A stretch of DNA of 63,928 nucleotides, counting the filler, from Folioceros fuciformis (taxonomy: Eukaryota): the NCBI GenBank assembly GCA_049999805.1. It is 5 parts of 5 records of this genome, joined end to end, with 100 filler letters (N's around TTAATTAATTAA, not from the genome) between each part and the next. Parts side by side here need not be neighbours in the genome. Positions count along the whole stretch, not along the records: positions 38,777 to 59,437 come from JBNGIO010005835.1; 4 more parts are not named here. One strand, given 5' to 3'. A program made the position numbers and the translations under genes. Below are positions 12,301-56,219 of this stretch, piece after piece. The notes below the pieces were generated by a model that searched no databases, was not told where the DNA came from, and worked only from the letters and a program-made list of their open reading frames with translations. Within the stretch, counting starts at the first letter, position 1; every line of letters starts with the position of its first letter.

Positions 12301-14023
12301 CACAAGCCTCGCAAAGAGGAGGTGTTGACGAAATTCGGGGAAGCTTATCATGATACAAGTCCTGCTGAGTCGTGGCCAGGAGCCGGGCTGGATTAAGATG
12401 TCCAAGCCGACAATGCCAAAGGAGAGCGTCACCTGGGTGGGATCTCCTTGAAGGCTGGTCTCCATGTGAGGGAACCGCCAGGGAAGTAGCTGCCGGAAGC
12501 ACGGGCTGACCTGTGAAAACATACAAGTCATGACGCGGACGTCCTCTAGCAACAACCACACGAGGGTTAGAAGACCGATATAGAAGACAATCGCCTGAAC
12601 CAAACTCTAGGCGAAAGGAGCCGTCCTTGACAAGCTGTCGAACAGAGATGAGATTCTTGGCCATCTGGGGAACATGTAACACATCAGTAAGCATCATGTG
12701 GGATCCATCAGCCAGAGTGAAGGCGACGGAGCCAATCCCCGCAATGGAGAGGCCAGAATCATCTCCAAGAAGTACGAAGCGCTGAGTGTCAGCAGCCGCC
12801 TCATACGTGGTAAACATGGTCTTGTGACTACAGATGTGCGTGGACGCAGCAGAATCAAGCAGCCAGGACTGCCTGTACTCAAATGCCACAAGACACATGG
12901 TGAGAGCAATTCCAGGTTGAGAAGGATTCTTGGCCTTAGTCGAGACAGTAGCCGAGTTGGCAGTACGAGGCTCTCGCTTGGCCTCACCAGCTTGCTTCTT
13001 CCTGCACTCCCTTTCCCAATGACCGGGCGTTTGGCACCAATTGCACGTGCCTTGTCGCTTCGTGGTCTTGGAAGAGGAGCCAGCCGAGGGAGCAGGCTTG
13101 TCGGAACCTTGTGAATTGTTCCTGTGTTTAGGTTTTGTAGAATTCTTACGCTGTTGTTGACGTCCTTTGGCGACGAACATGACCCGGTCTCCTCCGTGTT
13201 TTGAAGTCCCGACATTGAACCTGGCAGCCTCCTCTTGAAGGAGAGCTCCAGCTATCTCGGACACGGTGATGTTGGGTACCATACCCGACTGCACAGCCTG
13301 ATGTGCATTTCTCACCGTTTGGTTTTGTGAGGAGACAAAGGTCTGGTAGCTAGCAGGGAGGCTAGCCAATAACTGAACAGCCGCTTCAAATTCTGTGATG
13401 GTTGTGCCTAGAGCAGCAAGCTGAGCCCGTAGATATCTAAACTTGCTAACGTGTTGAGCAACGCTATCATTATGACCCATACGCAGAGAGTAAAACTCTA
13501 GACGTACTGTGACCAACGTCATAACGTTAGTAGATTGATAGATATCAGTGATTTGCTTCCAAGCTTCTGCTGATGTGGACGCACCATCCGTGTGGTGTAA
13601 TGTAACCTCGTCAAGGCCAGAGATCAACATCTGCATGGCTTGACGATCTTGACGAACCCAAGCGTCAAGGGCAACCGGATTACCGATGGGCTTGGGAAAA
13701 GTTCCTTCAACAATTGGGAGAAGATCCCTTGTGTTGAGGGCAGTCTTCATGCGCTTAGACCACACTTCAAACTTCGTGCCGTTAAATCTATCCTTTTCCT
13801 TAAAATCAGTGTTGATGTTAACGATATTGAAGTAAGGTTGGAGGCCTACTGTTGGTTGAGGTGGAATAGGGCCGGCTGGACCGCTAGGAGGTGAGGTGGG
13901 TGGTGGACTGCCCATCGGCACGCCCAAAGGTGGTGACGGGGGTCTGGATCCTTGCCGTGATGGTGACCCAAAGGGCCCCGCACCTGGACCAAACCCGGAC
14001 CCGGAGCTAGAAGCGCCTGCCAT
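9395..14023 (-). CDS. Ty1/copia Gag-Pol polyprotein (gag, CCHC, protease, GAG-pre-integrase, integrase, RT, RNase H) with one in-frame TGA at 9755-9757
   Basis: CNWCQTPGHWEREC; WLLDSAAS; LWHCRLGH...CEAC; VHVDLCGP, RSDNAGE, QNGVAE; KARLVAKG, LYVDD; DADWA, STE*EY, CDN, RTKHI, ADVLTK, in copia domain order. Confidence 0.95.
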
Positions 14024-14182
14024 CTTTCGTGAACTTGTCTTCAACTCGTAAGCCGACAATATGTTGTGACACAAGGCCGAGAGTACGAGTTAAGAACAAA
14101 GCACGAATTACATATAATAAGATTATTACTCCTTAACTCTTAGAGTCCAACCAACATAGTTCCTCCCTTGATACAAGTGAGC

Positions 14183-16412: not shown

Positions 16413-19231
16413 TCACCTTCCTTCACACCTCCCTTGGCATGGAGGATTTTTTTTCTGGTCAGCAACTTCCCCTTCCACATTTGCTGTTTCAACCCCCGCC
16501 ATGTTGCAGTCCAGGGTGATCCCAAAACACTCCACCCGGTTCAAGGTATAAGGGATATCCCTCCGGTAGTCCTCCTCTTCATTTGTCCATGAGATGTGAG
16601 AAAAGGGGAATTTATCCTCCCCCTCCTCCCCTTCCAAATCAGTTGTGTCCCCCACGGACATGTACCCTTCGGTGTCCATTGGGGTCTCACCAAGGTAGAC
16701 ATCCCGGCTCCAAGTCAAACAAATCCTACCCTCCCTAGTCTTGGGATCCCATTCAGGTGGTTTGAAAGCCACCTCCTTCCTTCCCCACGATAGCCTGCAC
16801 CTTGATCCATACAGCCACGTCCTGCCCTGCAAGATGTCGTAGCCCGGCGCCTTGTGCTGAATGACCACAAAATCTAGAAGATAGGGGATGGTCCCTATGG
16901 TCGTGGTCACCCCTCTCAGCTCTCCCACCGGCTGCATTCTAGACATATCGGCCAACCTCAAGACCTTGGTTGTGTGCTCGATCTCCAATCCAAGTTTCTT
17001 GGCTGTTCCTCCGTCATAATATTCACCCCTGAACTTGTATCCAGTGGCACCCTCTTAATCACGAAGTGTGCGATCTCCACCTGCAATTCAGCCGGTCCTT
17101 GGTCCACCATGGACACCATGTTGACCGTGGGGGCCGACACCCTTGGTCCTGACTTAGGCAGCCTCTTCCTCCTCTTGGGCTGGGCCTCCTGCAACACCTT
17201 CCGGACCTGCTGTCGATACTTAGGGTTATCCTTCAAGAGCTGGCCAAAGGTGACAACAAATTGCTGGTCCATGATGGCTCCAGCCAAATCAAACGGCTTC
17301 TGGACAGCCCCATTAGTCCCTTTGGTCACTGCTGCCACCTCCCTAAGTAGCAGACTTGCAGCCACGGGTGCTGACTCCTTTGCTAGCCTATCCAGCTCCT
17401 CCTAGCTCATGTCCAGCACTTCTCCCCTCACATCTGGAGGAAATTCCAGGTTTTCCCCCCTTGCTGGAGCTGCTCCCTCTCCAGCCCTTGATTTTTCCTC
17501 TTTAGGGGTCTGCCCTTCTTGGTCTCCCTCCTCTTGACCTGATTCCTCCCCATCTGGAGTACTCTTCTCCTCCTCCTTCGATCCTGCAGCTGATTCCACT
17601 TCCTTCCCTTTCTTCTTGGCAGCCCGTTGCCTCCCTCTTCTCTTCCTACTACGGGTACATGCAGCCATGGCTGTATCTTCCCCATAATACCCCTCCTTGG
17701 TGCTGTCCAGCCCCTCCAGCCCCCTAAGGACCTTGGCCTCAGCCTCCTCCCAAACAGCCATGAGGGCATCTTCTATGTGCATGGTTGTTGCAGTCCCTTG
17801 AGGTGCTGCTTGCTGCACCCCCATCACCGCCGGCTGAGCTATTCTCACACTCTTCCTAGGGTTCTGGCAAAGCACACTGCCCGCCACGTGCCCCTGCTGT
17901 TTGCAGTCCTGGCACAACCTATCAATATCCCCATTGGCCTGCCTAGTTGCTGATGGACAGTTGTTAGCATAGTGCCCAAATCCACGACAATTGTGGCATT
18001 GGACAACCCCCCCTGGTTGCCCAGCCACTCTCCCCACCTGGTTGCTGCGACCACCCATGCCCATAGGATTTCGCAGAATCGACGGATGGGCTGTCTTGGG
18101 GTATTGCTGACCTTGGGAAAATTCCTGGATTTGGTAGGAGTCCTCCACCGGCCACTCCTCCTCCTCCCCCTCATAGGCCAGCAACTGCACCTTGGCCCCT
18201 TGGCAATGGGTCTTGGTGTGGCCTTGCTCACCACAAGTGGAACAAAACAAGTTAGCCTTACCACTAGCTGCAGCCCTCCTCCTCTCATGCTCCTTGACAG
18301 CATGGAGGTGGAACTTCTCAAATTTACTCAGCATTTCCTCCATCTTGGATTCTTGCTGTTCCACCTTCTTGGCTGTAGCCTTAGCCTCTTTCTTGACCTG
18401 CTCCACCTCCCTCTTAGCATGGGCCACCTCCTGCTTGGCCTTCTTGGCCTTCCTCTTTTTCCTTGCCATCTCCAGCTCCTTCTTCTTCCTTCTCCTCCTA
18501 GCAGCCTCATCCTCCAAGGACTCCTCATCCGAGCTGTCCTCCGCTGAAGATGTGGAGGCCCTTGCTGATCCTCCTCAAGAGTCACTGTCCTCGGAGGATG
18601 ATTCCTCCGAGGAGGATGAGTCCCTCTTCTTCTTCCCCTTCCTAGGCCTGTTCTTCCTCTTGTCCTTCTCCTTCCCTCTCTCCTTCTCCTTGGATTTCCC
18701 TTTGCCCCAAGGATGAGACTCCTCGTAATTGAGAGCTGCCCTTATAGCCCTGTCCACATCCTTTTCTGCGAACAACTTCACATGGCCCCCCATCCTCGAT
18801 CCTAGGCCCCCAGCAAACCACCTAATGGCCTGTAAATCTGAATGAGGTCCACAGCGATCCCGCAGGCTGTGGAACCTCTCCACATAGGCCTGCAAGGTCT
18901 CCTTCCTCCTCCTTCTTAAGGCCTCCAGCTTGGACAGCACGTAGCCCTCTACGTCTATCTCCCTGAATCGCTCACAAAAGGCCCTCTTCAGCAGATCAAA
19001 AGTTGCTGGAAATGTGCCGGCCTTGAGGTACTCCCTCCTATACCACTTGGCAGGCCCTCCACGCAACACACTATAGAACAATTGGATGCGTTGTGCATCC
19101 GCTGATTCCTGGTTAGCAAGGGTCAGCAGCTCAAACCTCTCCACAAATTCATCCGGGTCCTCATACCCCTTCTTCTCCCTATACACGGGGTACGGCTGCT
19201 TGGTGGACATTGAAATAGCTAGTGTCGCCAT
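16413..19231 (-). pseudogene. Gypsy gag (three zinc knuckles) plus aspartic protease; two in-frame stops and a frameshift
   Basis: YEDPDEFVERFE...LRGGPAKWY; CSTCGEQGHTKTHC, CHNCRGFGHYANNC, CQDCKQQGHVAGSVLC; LDTSSGVNIM and YDILQGRTWL. Stops at 18575 and 17402 are in frame; frameshift near 16990. Confidence 0.85.
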
Positions 19232-28605: not shown

Positions 28606-31600
28606 CTTCAAAAAAAACAATTCTTCTCCTTGGAATTACGAGGCTTGCATGATGTTAGCATTGTTAGATTAAAAAATATCCAATTGCTCCATAAACTTAA
28701 ACACATTTTCCATGCATCCAATAATACTCAAACACACCATAGATCGAAATATTACTTATGGAACCATAATTATAATAAAAATAAAAAACCAAAACCACCT
28801 CATGTCCTTGGCACCATCCACAAAGCGCTGCACCCCTACAAAAGAACCCCAAGCGCTGCTCCCAACATAACTTGAACCCCCGTCCTTGCAAAAGCCCAAA
28901 TGGGCCGCGTGTGGTTTGTGGAGTTACTTAAAATACATATGGACCATGGAACTTTAATGGACAATCCGAAACAACCCTTATATCAACCGATGACACTATC
29001 AAAAGTGAGAAAGTCCGGGTTGTAGTTCAGGAGACATGTGGACAACGCAACTCCGGCCCAGATCGGGATCCTCCTTTAACAGTGATTTTACATTGGACCG
29101 CGGTGGTTGAACCGCGCTGTCTCTGCCCACGGGTGCTCGTCAACGGCTGTTCTCTAGGTTTCTTCCGAGCTACGCTAAGGCAGGCGATCGTTGCACACGC
29201 ATACAGTACTGTGCTTTCTACGGGTGATTACATTCTTTGGTCAAATTCCCTAATCACTGGTAATATTTTGCAATACGTCCACTCGATCCTGGCAGCCGGA
29301 TCTCAAGCTCGCTCTGAAGCACAAGAAGGAGCGAAGTGGTGCAGAGTCGGTCATGTCGACTCCTCGAACACCTACATCCATCCTAAAATGGGATGTGACA
29401 CACCCAGCCCACGAGTGGCGGGCTGCAAGAGACCGTGAGGAGGAGGTTTCGTTACAAAAACAGAACTTATATTAGTGGTCCATCTATTCCGACAAAGACA
29501 GGGTGAACAACGCAACGAAGGGCGCCAAACACGGTAGGAGAGCCAAGGAGGTTTGCGGCTTGGGTCCTTGGATCAGATCCTGATTTAATCTTTAAGGAAG
29601 TGTATGTTCGAGGAGCAGCACCGTATCCGTAGGCGTCACCTCCTCCTTCTCCAACGTACTTCCTTCCAGACCTGGGATGCCCGGCACACGTTCGACCTGA
29701 ATGACATAAACTGTAAGTTTGTGAATCATCCCGTCCTGCCCATGGCAGAATGCATTCCGTGGCATGCCCTTGGACTCGTGGACCGCTTGCCAACCAGCCA
29801 TGACATCGCTGCACCTGACTTGGAGCCCGGCACTCGGGACTTGGGACTGAACGTAGTACGTACTTGTTGCTACCGATTCTGTGATTTCGATCATTCGACC
29901 CAACTGGGCTATGCTGTTTAGGGTTTCCAGCGTCTTGCAGTTTTTGTTTGAAGTCGCACCACAGGACACGGCAGACAGATTGAAGCGAGCTTCTCCGATC
30001 ACGGAATCTGCAAGCTGCATTGCGAATGAGAGAGACATCACCCGGCAACGCCATTCGACCTCTTAAGCTCTCTGGCAACGATAACCTCCTGTATGCGACG
30101 GTAGGTGAGGAGGCCTTACCAGCTACTGAACTGCCAGCGATGCAGCGTCTTGCCGAGCCGGCCTCGAATGTCAGATCATTTTCCTGAAGGCTTCTGCTCG
30201 CTCTAGCGTTTCTACTATCGCTGCTGTATGGCTCTCAGCTCAGCGCTCTCCCGTCCTTTCGTAAGCCTCCCTCCTTGGTGACAGACCTTTGCACTCTTAG
30301 ACCTTTGAGGTGAAAGTGAACCCTTTCCGCTCTGCAATTCCAATAAGCTCTCATGATCATTCCAACGGTTGGACAGGTGCTGGTCTAGCTGCCTTGGCAT
30401 CCCTGGCTGTTCTGACCACAATGTGTGTTTCTCTGTAAGAGGAATGCGTGATTGGGAACATTCTGCTCACCGTGGCCGATTTCAGCAAACCAACTGGGAA
30501 CCACTCATTAGGAATTTTGTGATGAAGAAAAGGGCATACCACTGTTCAACATGCATGCCTTGTCTTAGGATACATGTAATTCTTCAGGTGGAGGATCCGA
30601 AAGGATCAACCTTGCCTTTCCGCAAAGAAATCGGAGAAGACGGTGTGTTGCACATGTTCTCAAATAAACCTGCAATTGCTCGTCTCCCAACAGATTGTTC
30701 TTGGTCTTTCCTCAGTGACTTCCTCTCCGCGATTATTGTCTCCATGTAATATCTTCCTTAAACGTTTTAGATGTTGTGTTCACCAGTAATGTTTTACTGT
30801 TATAGAGTGTAGCATTGCACTTAATGATTCTCTCATCAATGAAGTTCGTTTAATACTGTACATACTTATCTGGGAGATGAGAAGGCGAGCCCTCCTTAGC
30901 ACGAGGTAATGTAGGTCCATCTCTTCACATGTCTGTGGTGCATTTACAGTCACAAATGTTGTTCCAAGGGATGCGATGCAACAGTCTGAAAGCCCGTTCC
31001 TGGTTGTACTTGTTCGAGGACGAGGCACCCGTCCCACGACCACACATTGCTGGCCTTCCCATGCGCAGGGCCTGCAAAACATGTGTTGGAATGTGGGCCA
31101 TCCAGCGGGAGTCGTTCGAGTTTGATGCTATGAAAAGAAGCATGTCACGGGCGATCTGAATAGTGATGGCGATAGCGACCATGTCAAGCAAGCGACAGTG
31201 ACGCTCATAAACTTCCTCAAGCAAGCGCCACACCAGCCTGGAGTCATGAACCTCCTGTAGCCAGGAACTCGCAAATTGGATGGATCCGTCGCAACACCTG
31301 CTTCATCCTCCAGTCGTTAACTAGGAAACTTGGAAATCAGAGTAGTTAAACGCCAGTGACTTTACAGCCCATGCTTGCGATGTACGGTGGCGTGCTTTAG
31401 ATCTCGCCCCTGCCTTTCCCTGAATGAATGCCAGAACATCCTACAGGGATGAGAAGGGGAACAGGATATAGTGACTGTCACAGAGATCCCCCGCTTTCTC
31501 GGTCCCCCAGGCGCTCGTCGAACCACAGCTTGGGCATAATTAGCATTGCGAGTCGCGCAGGAACGCTGTAGCAACGCGATTCCCGGGTGCTGCAAAGCAG

Positions 31601-31734
31601 GGAGCAGCACGTGTCGGTGCAGCCATGGTTCATCCTCTCCTCCCGCCATAGTCGGCGCCAGCGGTTGGCGTCTATACAGGCGATCTTAGACCTCAGATCT
31701 CACGACCGGGAGGTGCCCATTCCCCGACTCGGCC

Positions 31735-32817
31735 ATGGCCAGCGGCAACGGGAACGGGAACCAGGACAAGGACAAGGACAAGGACAAGGTGCCTATCCCG
31801 GTAGTGGATCCGGGCCCGGAGAGCCTGCCCCCGGGCCTGCAGCAGCTCCTGTCGGACCTGGGATCGGATTCGTGGGCGATGGAGGAGCTACCGGACCTGA
31901 GGAGCGAGCAGCTAGGGGATTTTTTCCGGGTCCAACCGGCCAGGCTCAGGACGAGGACGCAGTGGCAGGTGCGCATGCAGGTGCTGAAGGCGGTGGGCGA
32001 CTGTCGCACACTGAAGCATGTCGTGCTGCAGGATCTGGACGTGGGCGCCGAGCGGGAGGAGGAGGTGGAGGTGCTCCTGGGCGGGCTCCAGTGCAATCCC
32101 GTGCTGGAAAGGCTGGAGCTCCGGGGATCCCCAGGCCTCGGGACAGAGGCGGCCTGCGAGAGGGTGGGCGGGATCCTGCGCGCCGCCCAGACATTGCAGG
32201 AGCTGTGGCTGGTGGGCGTCGGGATGGAGTCCGCAGGGCTTGCAGCGATATCGCGCGCGGTGCCGGGGTCCCGGCTCAGAAGCCTGCACCTGTCGTGGAG
32301 CGGGGTGCGGAACGCAGCAGGGGCGCAGAGCGTGGCGCACATTCTCACCAGCACCGCGCTGCGGGAGGTGAGGATCCACGGTTTGGGGCTGGACGTGGCG
32401 GAGGCCCGAGCGATCGCCCACGCCGTTCCCAGCCCGCCCATGGACCTGCAGACGCAAATTCAGGACTCCCTGGAAGTCCTGTTGCCAGGCCTGGCGCACC
32501 AGCTGCTGGGCCGGCGCACCTCCCCGATCAAGATCCAGGTGCCCTCTACCCCCTGCGTTTTCCACCAAATTCCTGTCGGCTTCCCAAAGCTCACACCTCT
32601 CTCCGTCTTCCTCATGGCCGTCGTCGAGCGTCTAAGACCCAGGGCGCCAGCGCGCCGCAAGGGCCATTCCCCGCCTCCTTGGAACGAGACGTCTCAGCAT
32701 TCTGAAGAATGTGACCCGGATCCATCCTCCACTTGCTGTCGCTCCACCTGGCATCCTCCTCACACGCTTGACAAGTCAGCCCTAGATATACACGTCACTC
32801 TCCCAGGTGGAAATTAG
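31735..32817 (+). CDS. RNI-type leucine-rich-repeat protein (TORNADO1/Roco-like N-terminus), apparently truncated or chimeric after ~32430
   Basis: ~28-aa repeats CRTLKHVVL, NPVLERLEL, AQTLQELWL, SRLRSLHL, TALREVRI; GC-rich coding-like sequence; LRR pattern ends abruptly. Confidence 0.6.
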   Translation: MASGNGNGNQDKDKDKDKVPIPVVDPGPESLPPGLQQLLSDLGSDSWAMEELPDLRSEQLGDFFRVQPARLRTRTQWQVRMQVLKAVGDCRTLKHVVLQDLDVGAEREEEVEVLLGGLQCNPVLERLELRGSPGLGTEAACERVGGILRAAQTLQELWLVGVGMESAGLAAISRAVPGSRLRSLHLSWSGVRNAAGAQSVAHILTSTALREVRIHGLGLDVAEARAIAHAVPSPPMDLQTQIQDSLEVLLPGLAHQLLGRRTSPIKIQVPSTPCVFHQIPVGFPKLTPLSVFLMAVVERLRPRAPARRKGHSPPPWNETSQHSEECDPDPSSTCCRSTWHPPHTLDKSALDIHVTLPGGN

Positions 32818-35800: not shown

Positions 35801-37956
35801 GACAGATGTTGCGGAACTCTTCAGATGGCTCTCGCGTTTATCATCAGAGTCCAACGACAAGGGGTACGTACATCAACTCGATAGGCATCGCTCGATTCAT
35901 CGCATCTTCTAGCATCCTTCGCAGGGGAACTTAGAAGTGATGACAACTGACAAGGAAGCCCTATCCAAACGTGAAACCCTAGCCTACTTTTCAGCAATGT
36001 GACGAATACAGCTTGACAGTTTGCAAGGAAGGCGGACCCCAGGAATGTAGCCATTCCCGGGAACGTGCACTGGTCGCTTGGCTCTTTCCCTTTCTGGTCC
36101 CTTCCCCCCTTAGTATGTATGTGTATCATCGCTGTGGCAGGTCCCATCCAATTGCTCTTTCATCAGCAGTGCCAGTGAGGGTGAGCCCTGGAAGATGAAG
36201 TCTGCCCATACAGTACCAAATCGCTCGCCTGGGCATCTTCCTATAGGGTCACGTCACGGAAGATGGTGGCAGCTTGATGGCGCACGCAAGACTCTTGTGT
36301 GTCCAGTTTGAACTTCGTAAGTTGTGGGCCTGGTGACTGAGCTCAACCTGACAAGGACAAGGCTGTCATCCAAGGTGACGCAAACGCGGTAACCCTGATC
36401 CAAGCTTGGGTGGGGCCTCCCTCCCAGGTGAAACCCCTTCCCCTCACAACGGATCACTTCTTTGCATGTAGTATGGGTATTAGCTGTCAATCTCACCTAC
36501 CAGTAGCCCAGCAATAATTCGCATTCTAATGACTTACGGGAAACTGGACTGTAAAGGACTGGCAACTTGTTCCACCCATAGCCATTCTGGTTTCCTTCAA
36601 GATAAGCTCGGAAAGACCGCTGTCTACTTGCCTCGTAGAATGGCCAATCTTGCATCTCTCAACATTGTTTGTGATTCACGTCCCTGTGTTAATCTCATGT
36701 GTGCGCTCCAAGTATTAACTTAGGTATGTACCTGTTTCGACAGAACAAAGTAGTATGCATTGGCGGACTCTTGGGGGGCATTTTTCTAGGTGAATATTTT
36801 ATGCTGGACCCTTTTGTGGGGAAATGGAATGGCTTCGGGAAAGGCAACACCACCTCCCATGCACATACATGTACATGTACTGTCAATTGGGATGAAGCCT
36901 GCTTCCAGGTACAACTTGACAGTTGGGATCGTTGGTCGATGCGCCATCTCCGCACGCCCCGCTTCAACGGCCAAGATTAGGCAGCGCCCATCCCGGTGTT
37001 GGGCCCCGGCCACCGGGGGAGGCCGGGGTGAAGAAACCGCCGGTCCGAAACCAGCGCGCCAAGCACGAGCGCTAACTTGCGCCGGCTCCACAGTCCTGTT
37101 TTTCGCTACGCGCTAACGCGCTTAAAATAAAATAGGATGGCAGGCCCGCCCCGAGGATTCGCCAGAGGGTTTCGCCTTGGGCGTAAGTTCGACACATCGG
37201 GTGGCTGTCCCCGGGAGACCGTTCTTTGACTGACCTCGCCAGCCTGCGTTGCTGACCGACCTCGTCTTTGCTCCGTTTGCGGAAGCCGCTCCAATTCGAC
37301 CTCGGGGCGTGACGAAGCGCTGAGCCTGATTCTCCACTTCTCTGATCCGGAGACTGTGGGCAGCTGAGAAGCGGAAGCTGTGTCTGTCAGATCTGGAAGG
37401 TTAGGCTCCGCCGTGGCTGCTGCTTCTGCCGCTGCTGAAGCTTGCAAGGAAGGAAGGACGGAAGTAAGGAGAAGGAAGAAAGCGCTGCATTCCCGCTGCC
37501 GGGTGCTGAGCCTGGGAGGACGATGGATGGTGAGCTCGGAAGCGGAGGCTACCCGGAGCTGGTTTGCTGAGGACGCCGTACTGTTGTCTTTGTATCCTTC
37601 ACGTGAGACAGGCCTCAGGCGGAGAGCTGTTTTCTGAGCTGCAGGTGCGATGGCGGGCCACGGGATAGAGAGCTGAGCATGAACGGTTTGGGTGATGGGT
37701 TTGCCGTCGTAGGGGGCCTCATGTCTGTAGCAGGTACGGCGGATCTGGCTTCGGAAGGAGAGGCGCAGGCCTTCAGGTCCGAAGGATGCGGTGAGGGAAC
37801 GTTGTTTGACGCCGCCGGGGAAGGGCGCAGATCGATGCGGGACGGAAATATTTCGGAAGGGTTTTAAGTTTTCACAGGAAGCTGGGAGACTGGTATTGCA
37901 GATCTGCTCTCGTTTTTGTAGAGTAGGCAGGGAGCGGTGGAGCTGGGAGGAAGAGA

Positions 37957-38676
37957 ATGGAGGCGATGGCCTGCCGGTGGCCTCTGTTCCCTGTCTTGAT
38001 AGTTTGGCTGCTGGCGATCAGTCACGGCCTTTCTGCCGTGAGCGGTACGGACTATGTTTTGGTGGGGAAAGACGCGTGGCGAACGCCTCAGAGTCGGTAT
38101 CACTTCAGGAACTGGGCCAGCAACATCATCTTCTATCCCGGCGACTCGATCAGTAACTTTCGGCTCACCTCCTTTGATCTGCCTGGCTTTGGCTGGTTTT
38201 CCAGGTTTTGGAGGGAAGAGGTTTGGTGATTTGCTTTGTTGCACGCTGTCTCAGATCTGCCATGCTTGATTTTGCAGCTTTTGTCTACGATGGGCGTGTT
38301 GACAGCGTTCAGGAAGTGGACGAGGCCGGGTTCACTGTTTGTGGATCGACGAACCCGCTCAGTACAGATGCCACAGGTGTAACGAGAGTGGATTTGGTGA
38401 ATCCTGGTAAGAATGGATCCTTGGACGTGGAGAGCGACTGTCTAGATTTGTTGCTGATGGCTTTTGTGAGGTGACATTGCATTGTTAATCTCTTGCAGGG
38501 AAGAGGTACTTCATCACAAGCAACTCTGCCAACTGCCGAGCGGGCCTTCAGCTGTCGGTCCTGGTGAATTCAAGCTCGCACATGGGGGGCAGATACACAT
38601 TCGCAGAGGGGAGTGCTCCTTCTGCTAGTCCTGACGTGGCCCCTCCAGTTGCCTCCCCTGTTCCAAAGGAGAGTGC
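37957..38676 (+). CDS. Early-nodulin-like phytocyanin (plastocyanin-like domain plus AGP-like tail); exons 37957-38152, 38278-38406, 38499->38676 (gap)
   Basis: Signal peptide; NWASNIIFYPGDSI|TFVY..DSVQEV..F..C...P|GKRYFITSNSANCRAGLQLSVLV; GT-AG phase-1 introns; conserved disulfide Cys, Cu ligands replaced; SAP/SP/AP-rich tail. Confidence 0.9.
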
Positions 38677-45922: not shown

Positions 45923-46625
45923 CGCTCTCTTCTCTCACACACTCTCTTCTTCAACACCTCTATTCAGAACACAACAAATGGTTCAGGGAATAAGGGAAGA
46001 AATCTCTCCTTCCACTCCGCGCAGCTGGCGGATTCGTCCCCCTCACCACTCACTACGGACCACAGTCGACCGTTCAAGGAATAAGGGAAGGAGAAGCTCT
46101 CCCTCCACTCCAGCAGCTGGTGGATTCGTCCCCCTCACTTTCCATTGCAGAACACAGCTGACCATTCAGGGGATAAGGGAAGGAGATGCTCCTTCCACTC
46201 TACTCAACTTGCAGATTCATCCCCCTCACTTTCAACTGTGGAGCAAAAGTTCTCAACCACCCCTAGGAGCGTCTCGCACTCATTGCCCACCCAAACATCT
46301 CCAGTCCAGCCATGGATAGCGAGGGGATCTCAACCACAAGGAGTCTCCAACATTTGCTAATAAGAGAGGCACTAACATGCCCCTTTGTACAGAGTTTCCA
46401 AGAGCGGGAGCCACAACCCGCTATAAAGCCTAGTTCTAAAAATAGCAGGAGCCACAACCCGCTATAAAGTCTAGTTCTAAAAATAGTCAACATAAAAAAA
46501 ATATACCTTTAATGGGAGGTGGCACCAGATCAAAGATAGCATTTTGCCAAATCTTATTTAAATCAACTTTAAAAAAATATGCTGAATGGTAGGCGCCACC
46601 AGGTCAAGATAGCATCTTGACAAAT
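45923..46625 (+). repeat. Dispersed repeat copy 1 (direct repeat of 56336-57075)
   Basis: Long near-identical stretch; internal motifs ggattcgtccccctcac and ggaataagggaag recur. Confidence 0.9.
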
Positions 46626-46629
46626 CTGT

Positions 46630-47300
46630 GAGTGCAGCTGACTGCCCTTCCGCAAGGCATCAGTGCATACACACGCCTTTAGAAGGCCAGCGAATGTAAC
46701 CCACAAGACCCTATTGCTTTATTTGTCCTTACCAAGCAAGCGCCTCTTGGCTGAGTCCTTCATGTGCATAGCCAGCTATCAGGGAACTCCATTTGACCAC
46801 ACATCTTGTGTAGACAAGCTGTCGTAAACCTGGTGGGCATCTTTCAGTTCACCACATTTTGCAAACATGTCCACCAGGCAGTTGCACAAGACTAAGTTGT
46901 CCAGCTGGCCTCGTTTCACAAACCTCCGAGTGCAGCTGCCCGCCCTTCTGTATAGCACCAGTGCTCGCACAAGCCTTTAGAAGGCAATCAAAAGTAACAT
47001 CATAAGCCACAAGCAGGCCCTCTTGCTCCATCTTTCCATACAGAACCGCCTCTTGGCCTAGACCCTGCGGTGCATACCCAGCTAACAGGGCATTCCATGT
47101 CACTACATCCTTCGTGGACAAGCTGTCAAAGGCCTTGCCGCATTTTGCATACATGCTCACCACGGAATTACCAACACATCACAAACAAACCATCAGACAA
47201 GTCAGGAGGAATGCCACTCTTGCAACACATCACAGAGGCGCCTCGGGCATGAGCTAAACTTCTGCACCAATTAATGTCGCACAATCCCTAAGCACGTGGA
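46630..47300 (-). pseudogene. Degenerate PLS-class PPR fragment
   Basis: VSMYAKCG, KDVVTWNALLAGY, TFDCLLKACA, LVDMFAKCGELKDA with frameshifts and deletions. Confidence 0.85.
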
Positions 47301-48053
47301 CTCCTCGATGTAGCCATTGAAGTCTTGTAATTTGTGCAAAAGAAGAATACTCTTTTCAGCCGGAGATGGCTAAGGACGATCAGGGCCGTTGTTACGGAAG
47401 ACCTGTGTGGACTACAGAGCATTCTACAAGTCTTACTGAAGGCATGGTGGGAAGATCATAGAGCCTTCAGAGATATAGAGGAAGACTACAGAGCGTTCTA
47501 CAACTCTTACTGAACACTTGGTTTGAAGGTGAAAAAGCCTTCAGAGATGGAGAGGAATACGACTATAAACCCCGGACGAAGACACGACATGTTTTCCCAA
47601 TGTGGCAGCTTGTGTGTCTGGCGGAGTTTGTGGCAGAGTTGGTGACAAAGACGTGCTGGTGACCTGTATTGTCATGATGCAGATAGAAGGATATCTCAAG
47701 AAGGGCGTGGGCCAGGATCGCAAGCCCTTCTTGCCTGCAGTGCTATGCCAGAAGGAGGCCCTGCAACACCTACAAATGTGACATTACTGTTCACTACGGT
47801 AGGCGTTGCAAGGTTTCTTCCGAGGGCAGCTGCAAAGAGGTCACTCTGCATCTGAAAGGGCAGCTACATTCCAGGAATCAAGAGCTGATGTACTTCGAGC
47901 CACATTGTGATAAACATGTCTGGAAAGTCCGCAAGCATGATTGACGTGCTGTATGCATAGATGGTGCGGCGAGGCGCAGCTGCACCGGCGAGGGCTTTCG
48001 GTATAACGATGGGCAGCGGTGTCTTGGAACCCCAGCGTCATCGCCTGTGAGCC

Positions 48054-50537
48054 ATGTGTGCTTGGGGCACCACACGGAAGGATGCATTTTTGTTGGGCCC
48101 GTGCTCGTTGGGCCATCAAGGTTGTGGGAGTTGCAGGTCTGCCGCCTTTCTTAAATCCAGGAAGCGAGAGTTGGCAAACAGCCAAGCCGCGCGATGCACC
48201 TTTTTCCAAAGGGGGCTAGTCTGTTCCAGGGGATGTCTGGCTGGAGAGGGATCGTGCAGCGAGAGTTCTCGTCAGGAGCGCTTGTGGCGGAAATTCTTTC
48301 TGGACCCGGCAGGTTGGTGGGATAGCAGGCAACAAAAGAAGAGCTCCCGGTCGCCGGACTTCCGACACAGGAAAAGCCAGGAGGTCCTGTGGGTAAACAA
48401 CTTCTACAAGCCACATTGGGTAGATGCGCAGCTGGCCGCTTTGGATATGCGTATGGGCCGGTGTGCCACAACATCCAATTGCCCTCCCAGACCCGCAAGA
48501 TGCGAAGGGGGTGTGACGCCTGAGACCGTGATCGAATTATGTCAGCAGAGGCTGGTAGATAAAGCCGTGGAGGCCATGGGAGTTCTGGTGGGCACAGGAT
48601 GTCATGTTTCGAAGTCTCTTTTTTATGCTGTTCTCAACGAGTGTGTGGCTTACAAGGATCTGCATCTGGTTCAGCGAGTTCACGTTCTCAGCAGGAAGCA
48701 GGGGTATGAGTCGGACACGTTCTTGTGCAATCATATCCTGCGGATGTATGGCTCGCATGCCAGGCTGCAGGAAACTATGGATTTCTTCCATATGGTTGCC
48801 AAACCAGATGCCTTCACATGGTCTGCCATAATCTCCGCGCACGTTGAACGTGGACAACACAAGCGGGCCCTAGACCTGTATCGAAGGATGCGCACGTCCG
48901 GTGTGAAGCCAGATGGCCATGTGTTTGTGGCAGCTCTACAGGCTTGTGCGAGGGGAGAGGACTTGAGAACTGGGCAGCAGGTGCATGCTGACGTGTTGGC
49001 CACTATCCTTGAGCCTCATTTGGTTGTTTGGAATTGCTTGGTGGACATGTATGCAAAGTGTAGCAGGTTGGATGACGCCCGACGAGTGTTTGACGGAGTT
49101 GGTCAGAAAGATGTTGTGACTTGGAATGTTATGATAGCCGGGTACGCTCAGCAGGGCGTAGGCCAGGAAGCCTTTCGTCTTTACAGTGCAATGCAAGAGG
49201 AGGGCCTGGCTGCACCCGACAGTGTGACATTTGTGTCTCTTCTGCAAGCATGCGCAAGTGTAGGCACCCCGGCTCTGGAGAATGGGAAGCATCTTCATAC
49301 AACAGTAAGAGAACGGGGCCATGAAGCTGATCTGTTCGTTGGCAATAGTCTGGTGAACATGTATACAAAATGCGGCAGCTTGGAAGACGCTCAGACAGTG
49401 TTCGACAGGCTTGTGCAAAAAGATGTAATCACGTGGAATGCCATGATAGCTGGTTATTCCCAGCAAGGGATGGGTCAGGAAGCCTTACATCTCTACAGTG
49501 CTATGCAAAGAGATGGCACCGTTGTACCTAATACTGTGACATTTCTATGTCTTCTGCAAGCATGTGCACATATGGCAGCCCTGGATCTGGGAAGGCAGCT
49601 TCATGTTCAGATCAAAGAACAAGGGCTTCAAGGTGAAGTGTCTCTGGCTACCAGCTTGATAAACATGTATGCCAGGTCGGGGAGCATGGCTGATGCACAG
49701 CAGGTGTTTGATACGTTGTCTAAGAGAGATATTGTCACCTGGAATGCACTGATTGCTGGTTACACCTACCAAGGAGATGGTGATCGGGTCTTCAACTTGG
49801 TTCAGAAATTGGAAGAGGATGGTTTGAAGCCAGTTGCGACCACCTTCCTTAATGTACTATTAGTATGCAGTCACATAGGTCTACTGGATAAGGGACAAAA
49901 GTATTTCGAGGCTATGAGCAAACACTATTCCATCACTCCCACGGTACAACACTACGCATGCATGTTGGATCTCCTGGGCCGTGCAGGCCGATTGGATGAG
50001 GCGCTAGCTTTGGCAAGGACAATGTTGGTACCTCCCGATGCTGTGGTTTGGGCCGCCCTTTTGGGTGCTTGTCAAAAGTGGAACAATGTGGAGGTGGGAC
50101 GTCGTGCGTTTGACGAAGCAGTGAAGCTGAATCATAAAGATGCTGCGGCGTATGTTCTGATGTCAAACATATATGCCGGTGCCCAGATGTGGGAACAGGT
50201 ACGTGAGATTCAGGAGAGGAGGGTAGCACGTGGGGCATGGAAGCAGCCAGGTCAGAGCTGGTGGACAGACATGGAAGGGCTGGTGCTTAGTTTCTTGGTG
50301 AAGGATAGAACACCTCCGACAAGTGGATCTATTGTGGCGTATCGTTTTAGAATGCATGAGGATGTCACAGCAGCCAGCTACCCTCGAGATCGGATCCATA
50401 GTCAGAGTCATGAAACGGATGTAGTCGAAACGCGGGAACTCGGAAAGATGGGCAAACCAGGGAACCCACATTTTTTTCTACATGTCCGTAACGGCACGAA
50501 ACTGGAATACACAGGCTACGCCAGCGGGATAGTATAA
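48054..50537 (+). CDS. PLS-class PPR protein with E domains and WW-type PG box, N-terminal OSB-type PDF motif; DYW deaminase core absent
   Basis: Repeating LVDMYAKC / DVVTWN.MIAGY / TF.SLLQAC; E region VWAALLGAC..YVLMSNIYA; KQPGQSWW; N-terminal LWRKFFLDPAGWWDSRQQKKSSRSPDFRHRKSQEVLW..KPHWV. Intronless. Confidence 0.92.
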   Translation: MCAWGTTRKDAFLLGPCSLGHQGCGSCRSAAFLKSRKRELANSQAARCTFFQRGLVCSRGCLAGEGSCSESSRQERLWRKFFLDPAGWWDSRQQKKSSRSPDFRHRKSQEVLWVNNFYKPHWVDAQLAALDMRMGRCATTSNCPPRPARCEGGVTPETVIELCQQRLVDKAVEAMGVLVGTGCHVSKSLFYAVLNECVAYKDLHLVQRVHVLSRKQGYESDTFLCNHILRMYGSHARLQETMDFFHMVAKPDAFTWSAIISAHVERGQHKRALDLYRRMRTSGVKPDGHVFVAALQACARGEDLRTGQQVHADVLATILEPHLVVWNCLVDMYAKCSRLDDARRVFDGVGQKDVVTWNVMIAGYAQQGVGQEAFRLYSAMQEEGLAAPDSVTFVSLLQACASVGTPALENGKHLHTTVRERGHEADLFVGNSLVNMYTKCGSLEDAQTVFDRLVQKDVITWNAMIAGYSQQGMGQEALHLYSAMQRDGTVVPNTVTFLCLLQACAHMAALDLGRQLHVQIKEQGLQGEVSLATSLINMYARSGSMADAQQVFDTLSKRDIVTWNALIAGYTYQGDGDRVFNLVQKLEEDGLKPVATTFLNVLLVCSHIGLLDKGQKYFEAMSKHYSITPTVQHYACMLDLLGRAGRLDEALALARTMLVPPDAVVWAALLGACQKWNNVEVGRRAFDEAVKLNHKDAAAYVLMSNIYAGAQMWEQVREIQERRVARGAWKQPGQSWWTDMEGLVLSFLVKDRTPPTSGSIVAYRFRMHEDVTAASYPRDRIHSQSHETDVVETRELGKMGKPGNPHFFLHVRNGTKLEYTGYASGIV

Positions 50538-50943
50538 TACGAATAAAACGTGGTAAATAGGATGTTTGTGAACGTTACAAATAAACCCAAATAAAGATGA
50601 AGATGAATAATGGTAAACCTTGTTGAATGAGATGAATATTGGTAAATGGATAAGGACAAGAATGAGGAGCATGCGTCCCGCCATAGCGACCTATGAAGTG
50701 GACATTCGCGTGTGCTGGGCTGGTGCTGTATAAGCCTGAAAACCAGGAGTATAAGCGCTTGTATGTATTCAGTGTTAGCCTAAACTAACAGTATTCATGC
50801 AGCAGCTGACCTAACCTCGCATGCAGCAGCTGACCTAACCTCGTGCCTGTGGGGAGCGTGTACAGTTATCTGTGTCCGCAAGCAACTTGTGGAGACTCTT
50901 CATCAACAACTAGGGAACCTTCGGGTTTCCGCCCCCACCAACA
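50420..50943. mobile_element. LTR-like insertion overlapping the PPR 3' end
   Basis: TGTAG...CAACA termini, TATA-like motifs and an internal ~25-bp tandem duplication; no matching target-site duplication found. Confidence 0.35.
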
Positions 50944-50955
50944 CCAGATGAGTCA

Positions 50956-53900
50956 CTAGCTGCTATCCATATATCTTGTGTAGCCTTCCAGGCCCAAACC
51001 TGAAAGATGCTTGTAATGCTTATGCTTTACCAGGCCCTTAGTCAGCACATCTGCCACATTCTCATCTGTATGTACATATCCCACTTTAACAGCATCTCGT
51101 TCCACCACATCTCTAATGTAGTGGTGTTGGATTTCAATGTCTTTAGTGCGGGCGTGGAATCTGGGATTTGCTACTAGGGCTAGGACTGACATGTTGTCAC
51201 ACAATATTGAGGTAGGTCCTTCTTGTGCTTGATCCAGGTCATGTAGGAAGCTCCTCTCCCACTATGCTTCTTTAGATGCATCTGTCAGTGATTTATATTC
51301 CGCCTCTGTGGAAGACAGGGCTATGGAAGATTGTTTCTTACACGACCAATTGACTGCAGCAGAGGCGAGCAAAAAACAATAAGTGGATAAGCTCTTCCTC
51401 GAATCACTATCAGATGCCCAGTCGGCATCAGTGAAGCCTGTCAAGGTAAGCTTTTGTTTTCCGCTCCCTCTGTAGCAGAGCCCATAGCAATGAGTGCCTT
51501 TGAGATATCTGAAGATTCTCTTAACAGCTGACCAGTGCATTCTGCCAGGGTTTTCCAGGAACTGAGATACTGTGCTAACGGAATACTGAATATCTGGACG
51601 TGTCCAGTTAGCAACAAATATCAGGCTCCCAACAGCATGCCTATAAGGTACATGCTGCATATCGCGGGACTCTTCCTCAGACTGTGGGCAATGAAGACTA
51701 GTGAGTTTCATCCCTGTGGAGTAGGGTGTTGTAGCAGGCCTAGCCTCATCCAACTTAAATTTGCGCAAAATATCATTTATATATTTGTGCTGATGTATGA
51801 TGAGCAGGCCTTCGGATCTGACCCTAATAATCTGTACTCCTAGGCAATATTTCAGCTCCCCAATGTCTTTCATGTCAAACTTTGTGCTGAGCATGTGCTT
51901 TACCTCTGCTAACAAAGTCTGGCTGTTAGTTGCGAGGATCACATCATCCACATACAGGGCAAGCACGACAAAATCGGTTCCTCTGCTCAGCCTGTATACA
52001 TTGGAATCTGCTGTGCTCTGCACAAAAGAGATGCTAAGGAGGTAGACATGCATGGTAATATACCATACCCTCCTGCTCTGCTTAAGTCCATAAATGCACT
52101 TTAATAATTTTAGGACTTTCTTAGGGTTTTCTGGATCCTGATAGCCCTCTGGTTGGTACATGTACAGGTCCTCATCAAGATCCCCATACAAGAATGCAGT
52201 GCATACGTCCATTTGCTGGAGATCAAGATCAAGCTCTGCAGCGAGGGCCAACAGAACGCGAATGGACTGAGAACGGACAACAGGTGAAAAAGTTTCCTGA
52301 TAGTCCAGACCCTCCACTTGGGTAAAGCCCCTAGCCACAAGCCTGGCTTTGTATCGGGCAATTTCCCCTTTGGCATTCAGCTTCAATTTGAAAACCCATT
52401 TGCACGAGATGGCTTTACGCCCTGGTGGTAGGTCAACAAGTGTCCAAGTCTTGTTTATAAGAAGAGACTGATACTCCTCCTCCACTGCTGCCTGCCATTT
52501 GGAGCGATCAGGGCCATCAAGTGCTGCTTGGTAGGAAGAAGGTTCCTCTGCAGGAAGAATATCAACAGTGGCTCCGTATACAGCAGCAGCAGTGCGAAAA
52601 TCCATAGACGTGTAACGGGGCTCCTGCCATTGATCAGGAGGTGGCCTGTGACGTGTTGACCAACGAGGGGCAACAGGGGCAGGCTCACCAATTGGATCTG
52701 GATAGAAGCCAAGATCAGCCCGAAGATCTTCATCATCCATAGAACTGGGAACATCATCAACTGCAACAAGATCGGCAGGCCCATCAGTAGGATCCAGGTC
52801 AGTAATCTCCTCAGAAGCAGGGTCTTCAAGATCCGAGGGAGGATCGTAATGAAGGATGTCACCCTGGTCTACTGCAGGGGCAACTGGAGCATGTGCTTTA
52901 CCCCTGTTGCCCCTTGTCGGGGCAACCGAAGGATCGGGAGCTGCTGGCGCTGGAGGAACAACTGCTAGGGGTTGCGTGTCATTAGCCGGGAAGGTGACAG
53001 TATCCGGTGCCTCCTCACCAAAATCTCCCTCTGAAGATGAAGCCTGCTGGGGGTCGGTTGTAACAGGATTGATAGCCTCTAGGAAGGTAACACTCCATGC
53101 AAGGACAATGTCTGTCGTATCAGGGTCATACAGCTTATAGGCCTTCACATTTTCACTGTAGCCAATAAAGATCAGTCTACGAGCTCGATTCTCTAACTTC
53201 TTTCTCTTTTGTGCAGGGATATATGCAAAAGCCTTGGAGCCGAAAATACGCAAGTGAAGCAGACTGGGTTTTCTATGCCAGTATACTTCAAATGGTGTCT
53301 TCCCTTTAACAGAACTGGTCAGCACTCGATTCAAGATGTATGTGGCAGTGACCACTGCCTCTGCCCAGTATTCCTGAGGTAGACCTGCCTAGAGCAGCAT
53401 GCTCCTAGTCATCCCTAGCAAGGTCTGGTTTTTGCGCTCAGCTACACCATTCTGCTGTTGGGTATAAGGAACAATTAGCTGCCGCTGGATACCCTGCTCA
53501 GATAAGTACTCATCGAATTCATGGTTAACAAATTCAGTGCCATTATCGCTGCGAAGGATTTTCAGCGTACAACCGGACTGACGTTGTGCTGTGGGTAACC
53601 AGTCCTTAAAGTAACTAATGGTGTCACTTTTCAGGTGCATGGGGAAGGTCCAAGAGTACCGGCTAAAGTCATCTGTCAACGTCAGGTAATAGAGGACTCC
53701 TCCTAAGGAGGGTGTATGGATTTTTCCTGAAATATCTGCATGTACAAGCTCTAAAACTCGTGTGGCTCTATGTGCAATTTTCGGGAAAGGAAGCTCCTTC
53801 TGTTTTGCAAGAATACATGCCTCACATACGGGCAACTCTTTAAAACAGCTAGGTAAGGGTTCCCTATGACAGCCGAGGTTGGACATGTCAATCAGTTTTT

Positions 53901-56219
53901 TGCGGTTAGCATGCCCTAGGCGAGCATGCCACAAAGATGCAAGCTGACTAGCATTCATGTTGACCGTGTACGCTGCATGGCTTGTGGACGCAGGAGAACA
54001 CTTCTGCTCTAGCCTGTACAGGTCATGATCGAGGACACCTCTAAATGCGCAGATGTTAGGTGAAGATTTTCTATAGAAGCAACAGGCATCATCAACCATA
54101 CGCATCTCATACATGAAAGACAGAGAAAATGTGTTCAAGAGTTTTATGCCACACAGCACACTTGGTCATGATATTAGTGACCTGATAGGTTTTCTCAAGC
54201 TGATTCCAAATCTCAATGCCCTTGGTCAGGTACTCAACATCAGGAACAAGAAGGGTATCCAAGCCATTGATAATGACAGCAACAACAACTTCATTGTGGG
54301 CTGTCCACTTATCTATATCAACTTGGGCACCGGTTTGAGAGTTAGGCTCTGGAAAACTTCCACCCACAACACTCCAGACTCCCCTAGCTATCAGGAGAGC
54401 TTTCATGCGTACCTTCCACACATGGTACAGTTTCCCATTAAACCTATCCTTCTCTTTCAATTCTGATGTGAAAGAGGGACCTGTAGCCATGGTTTGTGTA
54501 CTTGTGACAGGTACTATTGGCAGAAAATTCCAGAAATTGGATATATTAGCAGCCTGCAGGTCCTCTTCCCCCTTCGACGAGGTAGAACTATGATCTGATG
54601 GATCTAAGACTGCACCTAGGCTGATGTCAGATGCACTATGTACACTGCCAGCTAAAGACTCGTCCAAGCTGAGGTCAGATGCACTATGTGCACTTTCGGT
54701 ATTGGACATGTGTAAACCAGCTAAGTCCCTTTCAAAACTATGGTTCAAGAGGAAAAATAGCGAGGTTAGTTATGCTTTGATGTAATTGTCCCTAGAAGAT
54801 GCTCATGTGATACTAACGATGCGTTTCCAGGGGGTTAGTTGGGGGAGACAACCTGAGAGGGGATGGATACATAGTGTATTCAATCCTACACAGGCTAGCT
54901 CCCTCATCCAACTTCCTGGCTGCGTGAAAAGGGTGTAAGTGTGAGAAGGGACACAACTTTTCAAAAAGTATCGTTTGAGTTCTTTACGTAGGGTTTCTAA
55001 TCGACTTTTCTTGGTTTTATGAACAGACATGTCAGTTGACGGACCAATCTCATGCAAAGAGACGCAACCAAGCCAAGGGTCAGCAACACAATTGTGACGC
55101 TTCAGATCAACGCCAAAAGCCACTGTTGATCCTGTACGCCGTTTCGCATCTCCAGCGCTCCCCGCCAGCGGAAGCAGGGTCACAGGAAGGAGTCTCCGCT
55201 CGCACGCAAGAACTCTGTGGAGAATCCTTGACTAAGATCCATCGCACGCATCATTCCAGCAATCTGTGAGATGTTTCTATCAATTCTGGAAATTTGTGTG
55301 TCGATGTAGACTTGCAGACGAGCAACACCGTCTCTCAAGATGTGCTGATTGAACAGGAGTTTTTCAAGGGAAGTCCCAACAGGAACCTCAACTGAAATTT
55401 GCTTTTCTGCAGCCAATTTCTCTACTTGTTTCTTGTATGAAGTAGATTTTTCTACAGCAATTGCGCCGTCTTCTGCAGATGTTTCTCCCTTCAGCCACCT
55501 AAGCGTCCTCTTGTAATTTGGATGATTGCATACTTCTCCAAGGGCTCGCAACTCCCAATCAACAATAGGACCAAATTCAGGGGTGTTAGGAGAAGAGGCT
55601 GAAAGTGTTGACTCCTCAGCACAATTGACCAGTGGTTGAGAACGAGGATCAGGCTGGTTCCTAGCAATGCACCGGGCCCGGTAGAGAGAATCTACTCCTG
55701 AGGTTCTCAACTGCTGTAGCCTAATCGCACGCGCTCTGGAACTTGCTGTGCCTGAGTTTCTAGCAACCCACTGTCGTAGCCGTACGTCGGGGTAGTTGGC
55801 CTCGTACAGATCCAAAACGCTAGCAGCAGGGACTCGACTTGAGTTTTGTAGCCTTCTCTATTGACGTCGATCTGCACGGGATCTACCCNNNNNNNNNNNN
55901 NNNNNNNNNNNNNNNNNNNNNNNNNNNNNNNNNNNNNNNNNNNNNNNNNNNNNNNNNNNNNNNNNNNNNNNNNNNNNNNNNNNNNNNNGGATCTACCCCG
56001 GCGAGGCATTATGTCTTGAGAAAAGTAGAGAGCATTTGGAGCTCTGATACCATGTAAAATATGCGGAGAGCAGTTTGGCTCGACAAAGCTTAATGTCAAA
56101 TAATGAAAAATGATTGCAAAATTGTATGTGTGTATTGTTCAAATACTAAACCCTAAAAACGGTTCACGTATGTTTAACCTAAAAAAACCTTTATACTTAA
56201 TGTTGGCTTTATTTCCAAT
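50956..56219 (-). mobile_element. Ty1/copia element (copia C): LTR 56053-~56219, PBS 56041-56052, accessory ORF, gag with internal deletion (knuckle and protease lost), integrase, RT, RNase H with TAG stops
   Basis: GCTCTGATACCA; KEKDRFNG; LWHARLGH..CEAC; RSDNGTEF; KARLVARG; LYVDD; DADWA; RTKDIEIQHHYIR. Confidence 0.92.
55180..56009 (-). CDS. Accessory ORF (~240 aa) between PBS and gag of copia C, with one TAG if the gap is closed
   Basis: GGATCTACCC occurs on both sides of the N gap; merging gives MPRRGRSRADRRQ*RRLQNSSRVPAASVLDLYEANYPD... in frame with the 211-aa ORF; C-terminal heptads. Confidence 0.6.

Follow-up and report, generated by a model that had tools for sequence, protein, structure and literature searches.

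An OSB-type PDF motif ahead of a PLS-class PPR array in Folioceros fuciformis, and related fusions in seed-free plants

We analyzed a 63,928-nucleotide stretch of the Folioceros fuciformis genome (assembly GCA_049999805.1; hereafter the window), which consists of five parts joined end to end, with positions 38,777 to 59,437 coming from record JBNGIO010005835.1. This part bears a plus-strand gene, here termed P0001, whose product combines a pentatricopeptide repeat (PPR) array of the PLS type with a PDF motif of the kind found in the plant organellar single-stranded DNA-binding (OSB) proteins. The gene is one unbroken, intronless open reading frame (ORF) at 48054-50537, with 827 codons plus a stop, and encodes, in order, a 75-amino-acid presequence, a single PDF motif, a short linker, the PPR array and an E motif. 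A preliminary description of this DNA had placed an OSB-type PDF peptide at 48270-48450, upstream of a PLS-E PPR array in the same intronless frame; this interval corresponds to amino acids 73-132, the quoted peptide is indeed in frame with the array, and matches to Pfam PPR families and the E motif follow it in the same ORF. An in-frame TGA sits one codon 5' of the ATG, and no further methionine occurs in frame until M132, so that M1 is the only start that takes in the motif. A six-frame regular-expression scan found a single PDF copy in the window. The features of the locus are listed below, with pLDDT denoting the predicted local distance difference test score of the structure models and HMM a hidden Markov model.

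48054-50537 (+): ORF P0001, with presequence, PDF motif, linker, PLS-PPR array, E motif and tail (ORF calling; Pfam PPR families and E_motif)
48054-48278 (+): putative organellar targeting presequence, amino acids 1-75 (pLDDT <50 for amino acids 1-67; composition)
48279-48434 (+): PDF motif core, amino acids 76-127, LWRKFFLDPAGWWDSRQQKKSSRSPDFRHRKSQEVLWVNNFYKPHWVDAQL (homology to OSB PDF motifs; predicted mini-domain)
48264-48446 (+): PDF HMM envelope, amino acids 71-131 (motif HMM)
Amino acids 70-137 (+): predicted folded module around the PDF motif (structure models)
48462-48518 (+): linker between PDF module and PPR array, amino acids 137-155 (pLDDT <50 for amino acids 137-148; no regular structure before the helix at 156)
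48519-50228 (+): PLS-type PPR helical repeat array, amino acids 156-725 (Pfam PPR families; predicted helix pairs)
50079-50261 (+): E motif (E1), amino acids 676-736 (PF20431 E_motif, 7.9e-14, 52.1 bits)
50262-50537 (+): E2-like remnant (KQPGQSWW..GLVLSFLVKD), then a homologue-free tail and the stop; no DYW domain

The Pfam PPR families cover amino acids ~190-725 (PPR_2, 2.5e-65, 216.8 bits; PPR, 1.3e-54, 179.1 bits; also PPR_1 and PPR_3), and the E motif score compares with a cut-off of 27.3 bits. No Pfam family matched amino acids 1-169, the SSB domain (PF00436) had no match anywhere on the protein, and the DYW deaminase (PF14432) is absent by Pfam, with no remnant of it in other frames downstream. 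Likeness to relatives stops at about amino acids 762-776. The presequence is basic and hydroxyl-rich (11 R+K, 5 D+E and 13 S+T among 75 residues) and has no similarity to the presequence of comparable length (78 amino acids) in the relative P0077. By its domain content P0001 belongs to the E subgroup of organelle-type, PLS-class PPR proteins, lacks the deaminase and has an added PDF module.

To define the affinities of the motif we used amino acids 66-135 as a phmmer query against a library of 1.84 billion representative proteins, and recovered 599 proteins at E<=1e-3, of which 164 reached E<=1e-10 and 16 reached E<=1e-30; many were matched over several stretches. The non-PPR matches include proteins with an SSB domain and 1-13 copies of the motif that are named OSB1, OSB2 or OSB3 at source, in keeping with the OSB-type identity put forward in the preliminary description; thus, P0005, a 'protein OSB3, chloroplastic/mitochondrial-like' from Chenopodium quinoa, matched at 2.9e-44 over 4 stretches. 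When ten non-PPR matches were scanned with Pfam, PF00436 was found N-terminal to the motif copies in seven (five above the cut-off), and the other three showed unrelated or no Pfam families, one being a kinesin model. The window copy scored 8e-25 with an HMM made from the phmmer matches. A profile of 23 motifs (A1), with 11 invariant columns, retrieved 1714 proteins at E<=1e-5 among 7999 scored candidates; the best 120 of these include many angiosperm OSB1, OSB2 and OSB3 proteins, Cryptomeria OSB2 and green algal proteins, as well as 27 PPR proteins according to precomputed Pfam lists. A comparison of 89 PPR-borne with 283 SSB-borne motifs showed that: 1) the two classes share the consensus LW..FF..P..WWDNR..K.NP..PDFKHK.T.EALW......P.WV, whose conserved positions hold aromatic and basic residues, namely W, F, K and R. 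2) Of the 14 columns at least 80% conserved in both classes, 13 are intact in the window motif, the 14th showing a K-to-R change. 3) The Pro-Asp-Phe signature is present in it as PDFRHRK. 4) Several consensus positions differ between PPR-borne and OSB motifs (EFFSDPSQ versus DLv.NP.k). The E-values and the conserved columns rule out a chance or low-complexity match, and, judged from its sequence, the window motif is a true homologue of the repeated OSB PDF motif. A word-indexed search at near lengths, with the window motif as query, gave 20 candidates, none of which was scored; its variant words PDFRH and GWWDS are rare. In the local Pfam copy no model spans the motif in nine fusion relatives, and hence domain surveys based on Pfam are expected to miss it.

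In the available text of three reviews (PMC6963530, PMC4166229, PMC6451138) the PDF motif is described as a stretch of ~50 amino acids named for its Pro-Asp-Phe signature, and is held, with citation of Zaegel 2006, to be sufficient or responsible for single-stranded DNA (ssDNA) binding by OSB proteins, with the OB fold not contributing. The ~50-residue motif of P0001 is the same as that of the OSB proteins; however, in these an SSB-like OB fold precedes the C-terminal PDF copies, whereas P0001 has no SSB domain and its lone PDF motif (amino acids 76-127) lies N-terminal to a PPR array. In its architecture, without an OB fold and with reversed domain order, P0001 is not an OSB.

Structure prediction suggests that the motif forms a compact unit. 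An AlphaFold2 model of amino acids 61-140, built from 29 aligned rows, reached a mean pLDDT of 85.3 and a predicted template modelling score of 0.71, and shows a first helix, short strands at WWD and at FRH, a strand bridge at LW and a second helix. In the full-length model (36 rows) amino acids 1-67 have a pLDDT of about 25, the module at 70-137 reaches 82-94, residues 137-148 fall below 50, the helix pairs of the PPR solenoid at 156-725 lie mostly above 90, and everything beyond residue 732 is again below 50. The PDF module is thus predicted with high confidence to be an independent alpha-beta-beta-alpha mini-domain that is followed by a flexible linker and preceded by a disordered presequence. 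A PDB sequence search with the motif gave no matches at E<=10, and Foldseek gave none against PDB at E<=1e-3, the sole rows being WW domains at E 5-8; the best Z in a wide VIA-align search was 4.5, with none at or above 5. Hence, a known fold is not assignable, which does not imply that the fold is new. The best ESM Atlas score (0.82, to phage gp49 clusters) was below the lead threshold of 0.9 and was disregarded.

The combination is not peculiar to the window. A PPR array follows the motif in 18 of the best 150 motif matches, without exception in order, and conversely the motif HMM is positive in 32 of the best 120 full-length PPR relatives of P0001 (31 newly fetched proteins and P0003). Altogether, PDF and PPR occur together in 87 of 405 fetched proteins: 49 from Diphasiastrum complanatum (isoforms counted), 12 from Sphagnum species, 6 unnamed PPR proteins from metagenomes, 4 from Calypogeia fissa, 3 from a Pteridium aquilinum transcriptome, 2 each from Adiantum capillus-veneris and Selaginella moellendorffii, 8 from nameless sources, and P0001 itself. 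The expectation that such fusions would be common in seed-free plants is therefore upheld for a liverwort, mosses, lycophytes and ferns; no hornwort, a group that the preliminary description had named, occurs among the named matches. Seed plants are likewise missing from the named sources of the 87 fusions. Within the best 120 full-length PPR relatives, the motif is present in 18/29 Diphasiastrum, 4/4 Calypogeia and 3/3 Sphagnum proteins, and in 0/16 from Cryptomeria and 0/21 'Gb_' rows, which we take to be Ginkgo; such absences weigh little, since gene models may miss N-termini. In an earlier set of 391 proteins the motif, present in 1-3 copies with the first starting at a median of amino acid 51, precedes the array in 82 of 83 fusions (the exception being P0335), and none of the 83 has an SSB-like domain. 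Many of the fusions have E and DYW as well; full PPR, E and DYW content was detected by Pfam in P0077 and P0293 (Diphasiastrum), P0235 (Calypogeia) and P0266 (Sphagnum). The order PDF then PPR also occurs in four ORFs from Pteridium aquilinum transcriptome contigs (P0093, P0329, P0089 and P0147), among them the 1374-residue P0329 with three motifs ahead of its PPRs; as these ORFs derive from transcriptome contigs, motif and array are carried by one fern transcript. The single unbroken ORF in the window, the SSB-free fusions and the fern transcript ORFs with the same order together rule out that an OSB gene was artificially joined to a PPR gene in gene modelling. Thus, going by the domain matches, an architecture of 1-3 PDF motifs followed by a PLS-PPR array and by E, alone or together with DYW, occurs widely among liverworts, mosses, lycophytes and ferns. 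These proteins are already public, annotated merely as PPR or hypothetical proteins.

A few carriers of the motif are odd (P0002, P0061, P0026 and P0335). The Diphasiastrum protein P0335 looks like two PDF-PPR genes fused in one model. PDF copies also occur in a kinesin from Coptis and in an 'ICR2' model from Striga, both of which are probably merged gene models. A Kingdonia protein of 1160 amino acids has 13 motif stretches. The family PF26713.1 appears in the precomputed lists of many lycophyte and fern PPR relatives and was not reported by local Pfam scans; it is not the PDF motif, since P0003 has three motifs and no PF26713.1.

We then considered the age of the association using 662 full-length motifs (from HMM positions <=8 to >=57, with partial motifs omitted); after removal of 127 with >=80% identity to a kept row, the remaining 535 motifs and 63 columns went into a FastTree phylogeny. 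Among 372 labelled tips a minimum of 4 changes between PPR and SSB context is required. PPR-borne motifs form three clades free of SSB-borne ones: 43 motifs from Diphasiastrum, Adiantum, Calypogeia and Sphagnum (support 53), 28 from Diphasiastrum (support 97), and 14 from Selaginella, ferns and the window copy (support 84). OSB motifs from Diphasiastrum (in P0071) and from Adiantum (in P0368) group with other OSB motifs, apart from the PPR-borne ones. The tree weakly suggests one or few old fusions rather than repeated recent captures, its weakness stemming from the 63 columns, the fast method and taxon-biased labels.

No paper found by a full-text search, which covers neither subscription papers nor supplementary tables, describes a PDF-PPR or OSB-PPR fusion or its function, in agreement with the preliminary description, which knew of no functional account. 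For Physcomitrium, the available text of PMC9459714 gives RRM, LAGLIDADG, SMR, NYN, CBS and SAP as extra domains of PPR proteins, with no PDF, and that of PMC13386178 describes PPR fusions with MORF, RRM and RanBP2, again with no PDF; the terms 'OSB' and 'single-stranded' are absent from the main text of the latter, supplements being outside this scope. An architectural parallel in the available text of PMC9459714 is maize PPR4, in which an N-terminal RRM precedes the PPR tract, so that, as in P0001, a domain of the general RNA- or single-strand-binding kind lies N-terminal to a sequence-specific tract. However, PPR4 is a P-class protein that acts in splicing and the RRM fold is unrelated to PDF, whereas in P0001 the host is of the PLS editing type and carries an added domain so far known from ssDNA binders alone. 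Among the PLS-class editing factors (E, E+ and DYW), P0001 conforms in its intronless gene, PLS-type array and E motif; it has fusion relatives with full E and DYW, which it differs from in having no DYW domain. The MORF/RIP helpers possibly offer an analogy of function, as accessories that improve target engagement by PLS-class PPR proteins. According to the main text of PMC13386178, MORFs occur in seed plants alone, and every named PDF-PPR fusion comes from a seed-free plant, so that the two distributions look complementary; yet MORFs act in trans on L motifs, while PDF is fused in cis, and the two are unrelated in sequence and fold.

The PPR editing factors, which rank with the largest gene families of plants, are used as templates in building designer RNA editors, and their known accessory parts are E and DYW domains and trans-acting factors such as MORF, ORRM and OZ. 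A conserved module of the single-strand nucleic-acid-binding type at the N-terminus of many PLS-PPR-(DYW) proteins would add a part to this machinery and extends the known use of the PDF motif beyond the OSB proteins. PLS-class PPR proteins with E or DYW domains specify organellar C-to-U editing sites, and PPR tracts lie parallel to the RNA that they bind, with the N-terminus toward its 5' end. Given this orientation, the PDF module would lie on RNA immediately 5' of the PPR footprint. We tentatively favour, at somewhat less than an even chance, the reading that PDF is an accessory single-strand nucleic-acid binder retained after import, with the RNA just 5' of the footprint as its most likely ligand. 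In such a scheme the presequence would be removed on import and the PDF module would remain on the mature protein, where it would bind single-stranded nucleic acid without sequence specificity, and thereby raise the affinity of the editing factor for its target or hold the editing site unfolded. P0001 by itself could be only a specificity factor, as it has no DYW deaminase, and a deaminase would therefore have to be supplied in trans. What speaks for RNA as the ligand is the adjacent RNA-binding array together with the distinct clades and consensus of the PPR-borne motifs.

Several observations weigh against this proposal. The closest full-length relative among the matches listed, P0239 (52% identical to P0001), has an eroded N-terminal motif that retains LW.EFFSDPTQWWDSR and has lost its PDFKHK core, which shows, at the sequence level, module decay inside the same subfamily. 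P0278, P0294 and P0308 (45-46% identical) and P0285 have no motif at all; hence, the PDF module is not indispensable in the subfamily of P0001. None of the 9 Adiantum proteins among the best 120 full-length PPR relatives bears it. The reviews that describe the motif (PMC6963530, PMC4166229, PMC6451138), as far as their text is available, further state that AtOSB1 and AtOSB2 prefer ssDNA over double-stranded DNA or RNA, which favours a DNA ligand over RNA. Finally, the P0001 copy may be a decaying retrocopy, with no DYW domain, a degenerate E2 and a homologue-free tail, lying between a Copia element and a PPR fragment.

The preference of the OSB proteins leads to the alternative suggested in the preliminary description, namely that PDF binds ssDNA in nucleoids, transcription bubbles, or replication and recombination intermediates, and so tethers editing factors where nascent RNA emerges or gives these PPR proteins a DNA-related role. 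It draws on the fact that ssDNA binding is the only biochemistry reported for PDF in the available text of these reviews, with OSB1 and OSB2 preferring this ligand and the binding residing in PDF rather than the OB fold, and on the conserved residues that PPR-borne motifs share with OSB motifs. However, our analysis found no link from these PPR proteins to DNA, the module adjoins an RNA-binding array, which makes RNA the nearest single-stranded ligand, and the PPR-borne motifs fall in their own clades with the divergent consensus positions noted above, so that their specificity may have shifted. We consider such a tether unlikely, though it is the main alternative.

Somewhat less probable still is that P0001 is non-functional or a decaying retrocopy, or that its protein starts at M132, with the motif idle and kept by recent descent. 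This would accord with the missing DYW domain, the degenerate E2 and tail with pLDDT below 50, the eroded motif of P0239, the ATG one codon past an in-frame stop and the transposon-rich surroundings. Copia-type long terminal repeat retrotransposon polyproteins (RVT_2, rve, gag_pre-integrs and Retrotran_gag_2) lie at 51265-54165 (-), about 730 bp downstream of the stop codon and split over at least two frames, and at 9758-14089 (-), in one frame of 1444 amino acids; a PLS-type PPR gene fragment of ~200 amino acids at 46579-47175 (-) is head-to-head with the P0001 ORF, ~880 bp upstream of its ATG. Nor does transcription of P0001 have RNA support: run X2, whose RNA nature is guessed and in which RNA and DNA are not separable, covers 46544-50617, including ~1 kb of non-coding sequence upstream, where its depth is the same low depth as that of the DNA runs X1 and X3; its cover ends ~80 nt past the stop codon, where the DNA runs continue. 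On the other hand, an unbroken frame of 827 codons would be unexpected in a long-dead copy, the core residues of the motif are all intact, and a presequence of similar length precedes the motif in P0077. Moreover, the four nearest relatives, P0239, P0278, P0294 and P0308, likewise end shortly after E2, and the missing DYW is thus a mark of the subfamily rather than damage peculiar to P0001. P0077, with 47% identity to P0001 overall and 62% in the motif, has both motif and DYW, and its DYW domain, like that of P0285, ends in ...GGRP instead of DYW. A GGRP terminus characterizes the KP-type DYW variants that are associated with U-to-C editing in hornworts, lycophytes and ferns, and would put the source organism of the window among plants of this kind. 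The window motif is also most like fern copies (KPxWVDxQLAxLD).

The least likely reading, which we hold very improbable, is that PDF mediates contacts with OSBs, editosome parts or itself, or import and sorting (the targeting role raised in the preliminary description), and binds no nucleic acid: AtOSB2 is reported as a tetramer in the available text of one of the reviews (among PMC6963530, PMC4166229 and PMC6451138) and the fold has no solved nucleic-acid-binding counterpart, the WW-domain rows being insignificant, but the same reviews place ssDNA binding in PDF itself, the conserved W, F, K and R are usual for single-strand nucleic-acid binders, and a folded domain of 60 amino acids behind a presequence of 20-100 is unlike a targeting signal. 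The observation made in the preliminary description is confirmed, and its interpretation is partly supported. A broader and improbable reading is that PDF is an unrecognised cis accessory of editing in seed-free plants, acquired by fusion to a PLS-PPR ancestor early in the history of land plants, acting as a MORF counterpart or as a link to nucleoid ssDNA, and lost or replaced by trans factors in seed plants. The module may explain the target reach of editing factors in plants without MORFs.

Regarding the rest of the window, read contigs reach thousands-fold depth on 46822-47143, inside the upstream PPR fragment, and this pile-up marks a highly repeated PPR consensus stretch. In each of the three runs the read-contig depth at >=90% likeness over the motif bin (48271-48431) is ~10x the depth on its unique flanks, a figure that is not a copy number and hints at further near-identical PDF-coding copies in the same organism. 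Stop-free frames of 300-390 amino acids with no Pfam match at E<=1e-5 occur at 17405-18574 (-), 6523-7620 (+), 31575-32705 (+) and 37109-38017 (-). The 16-24 kb region of the window has a strongly negative GC skew, with GC content up to 60%.

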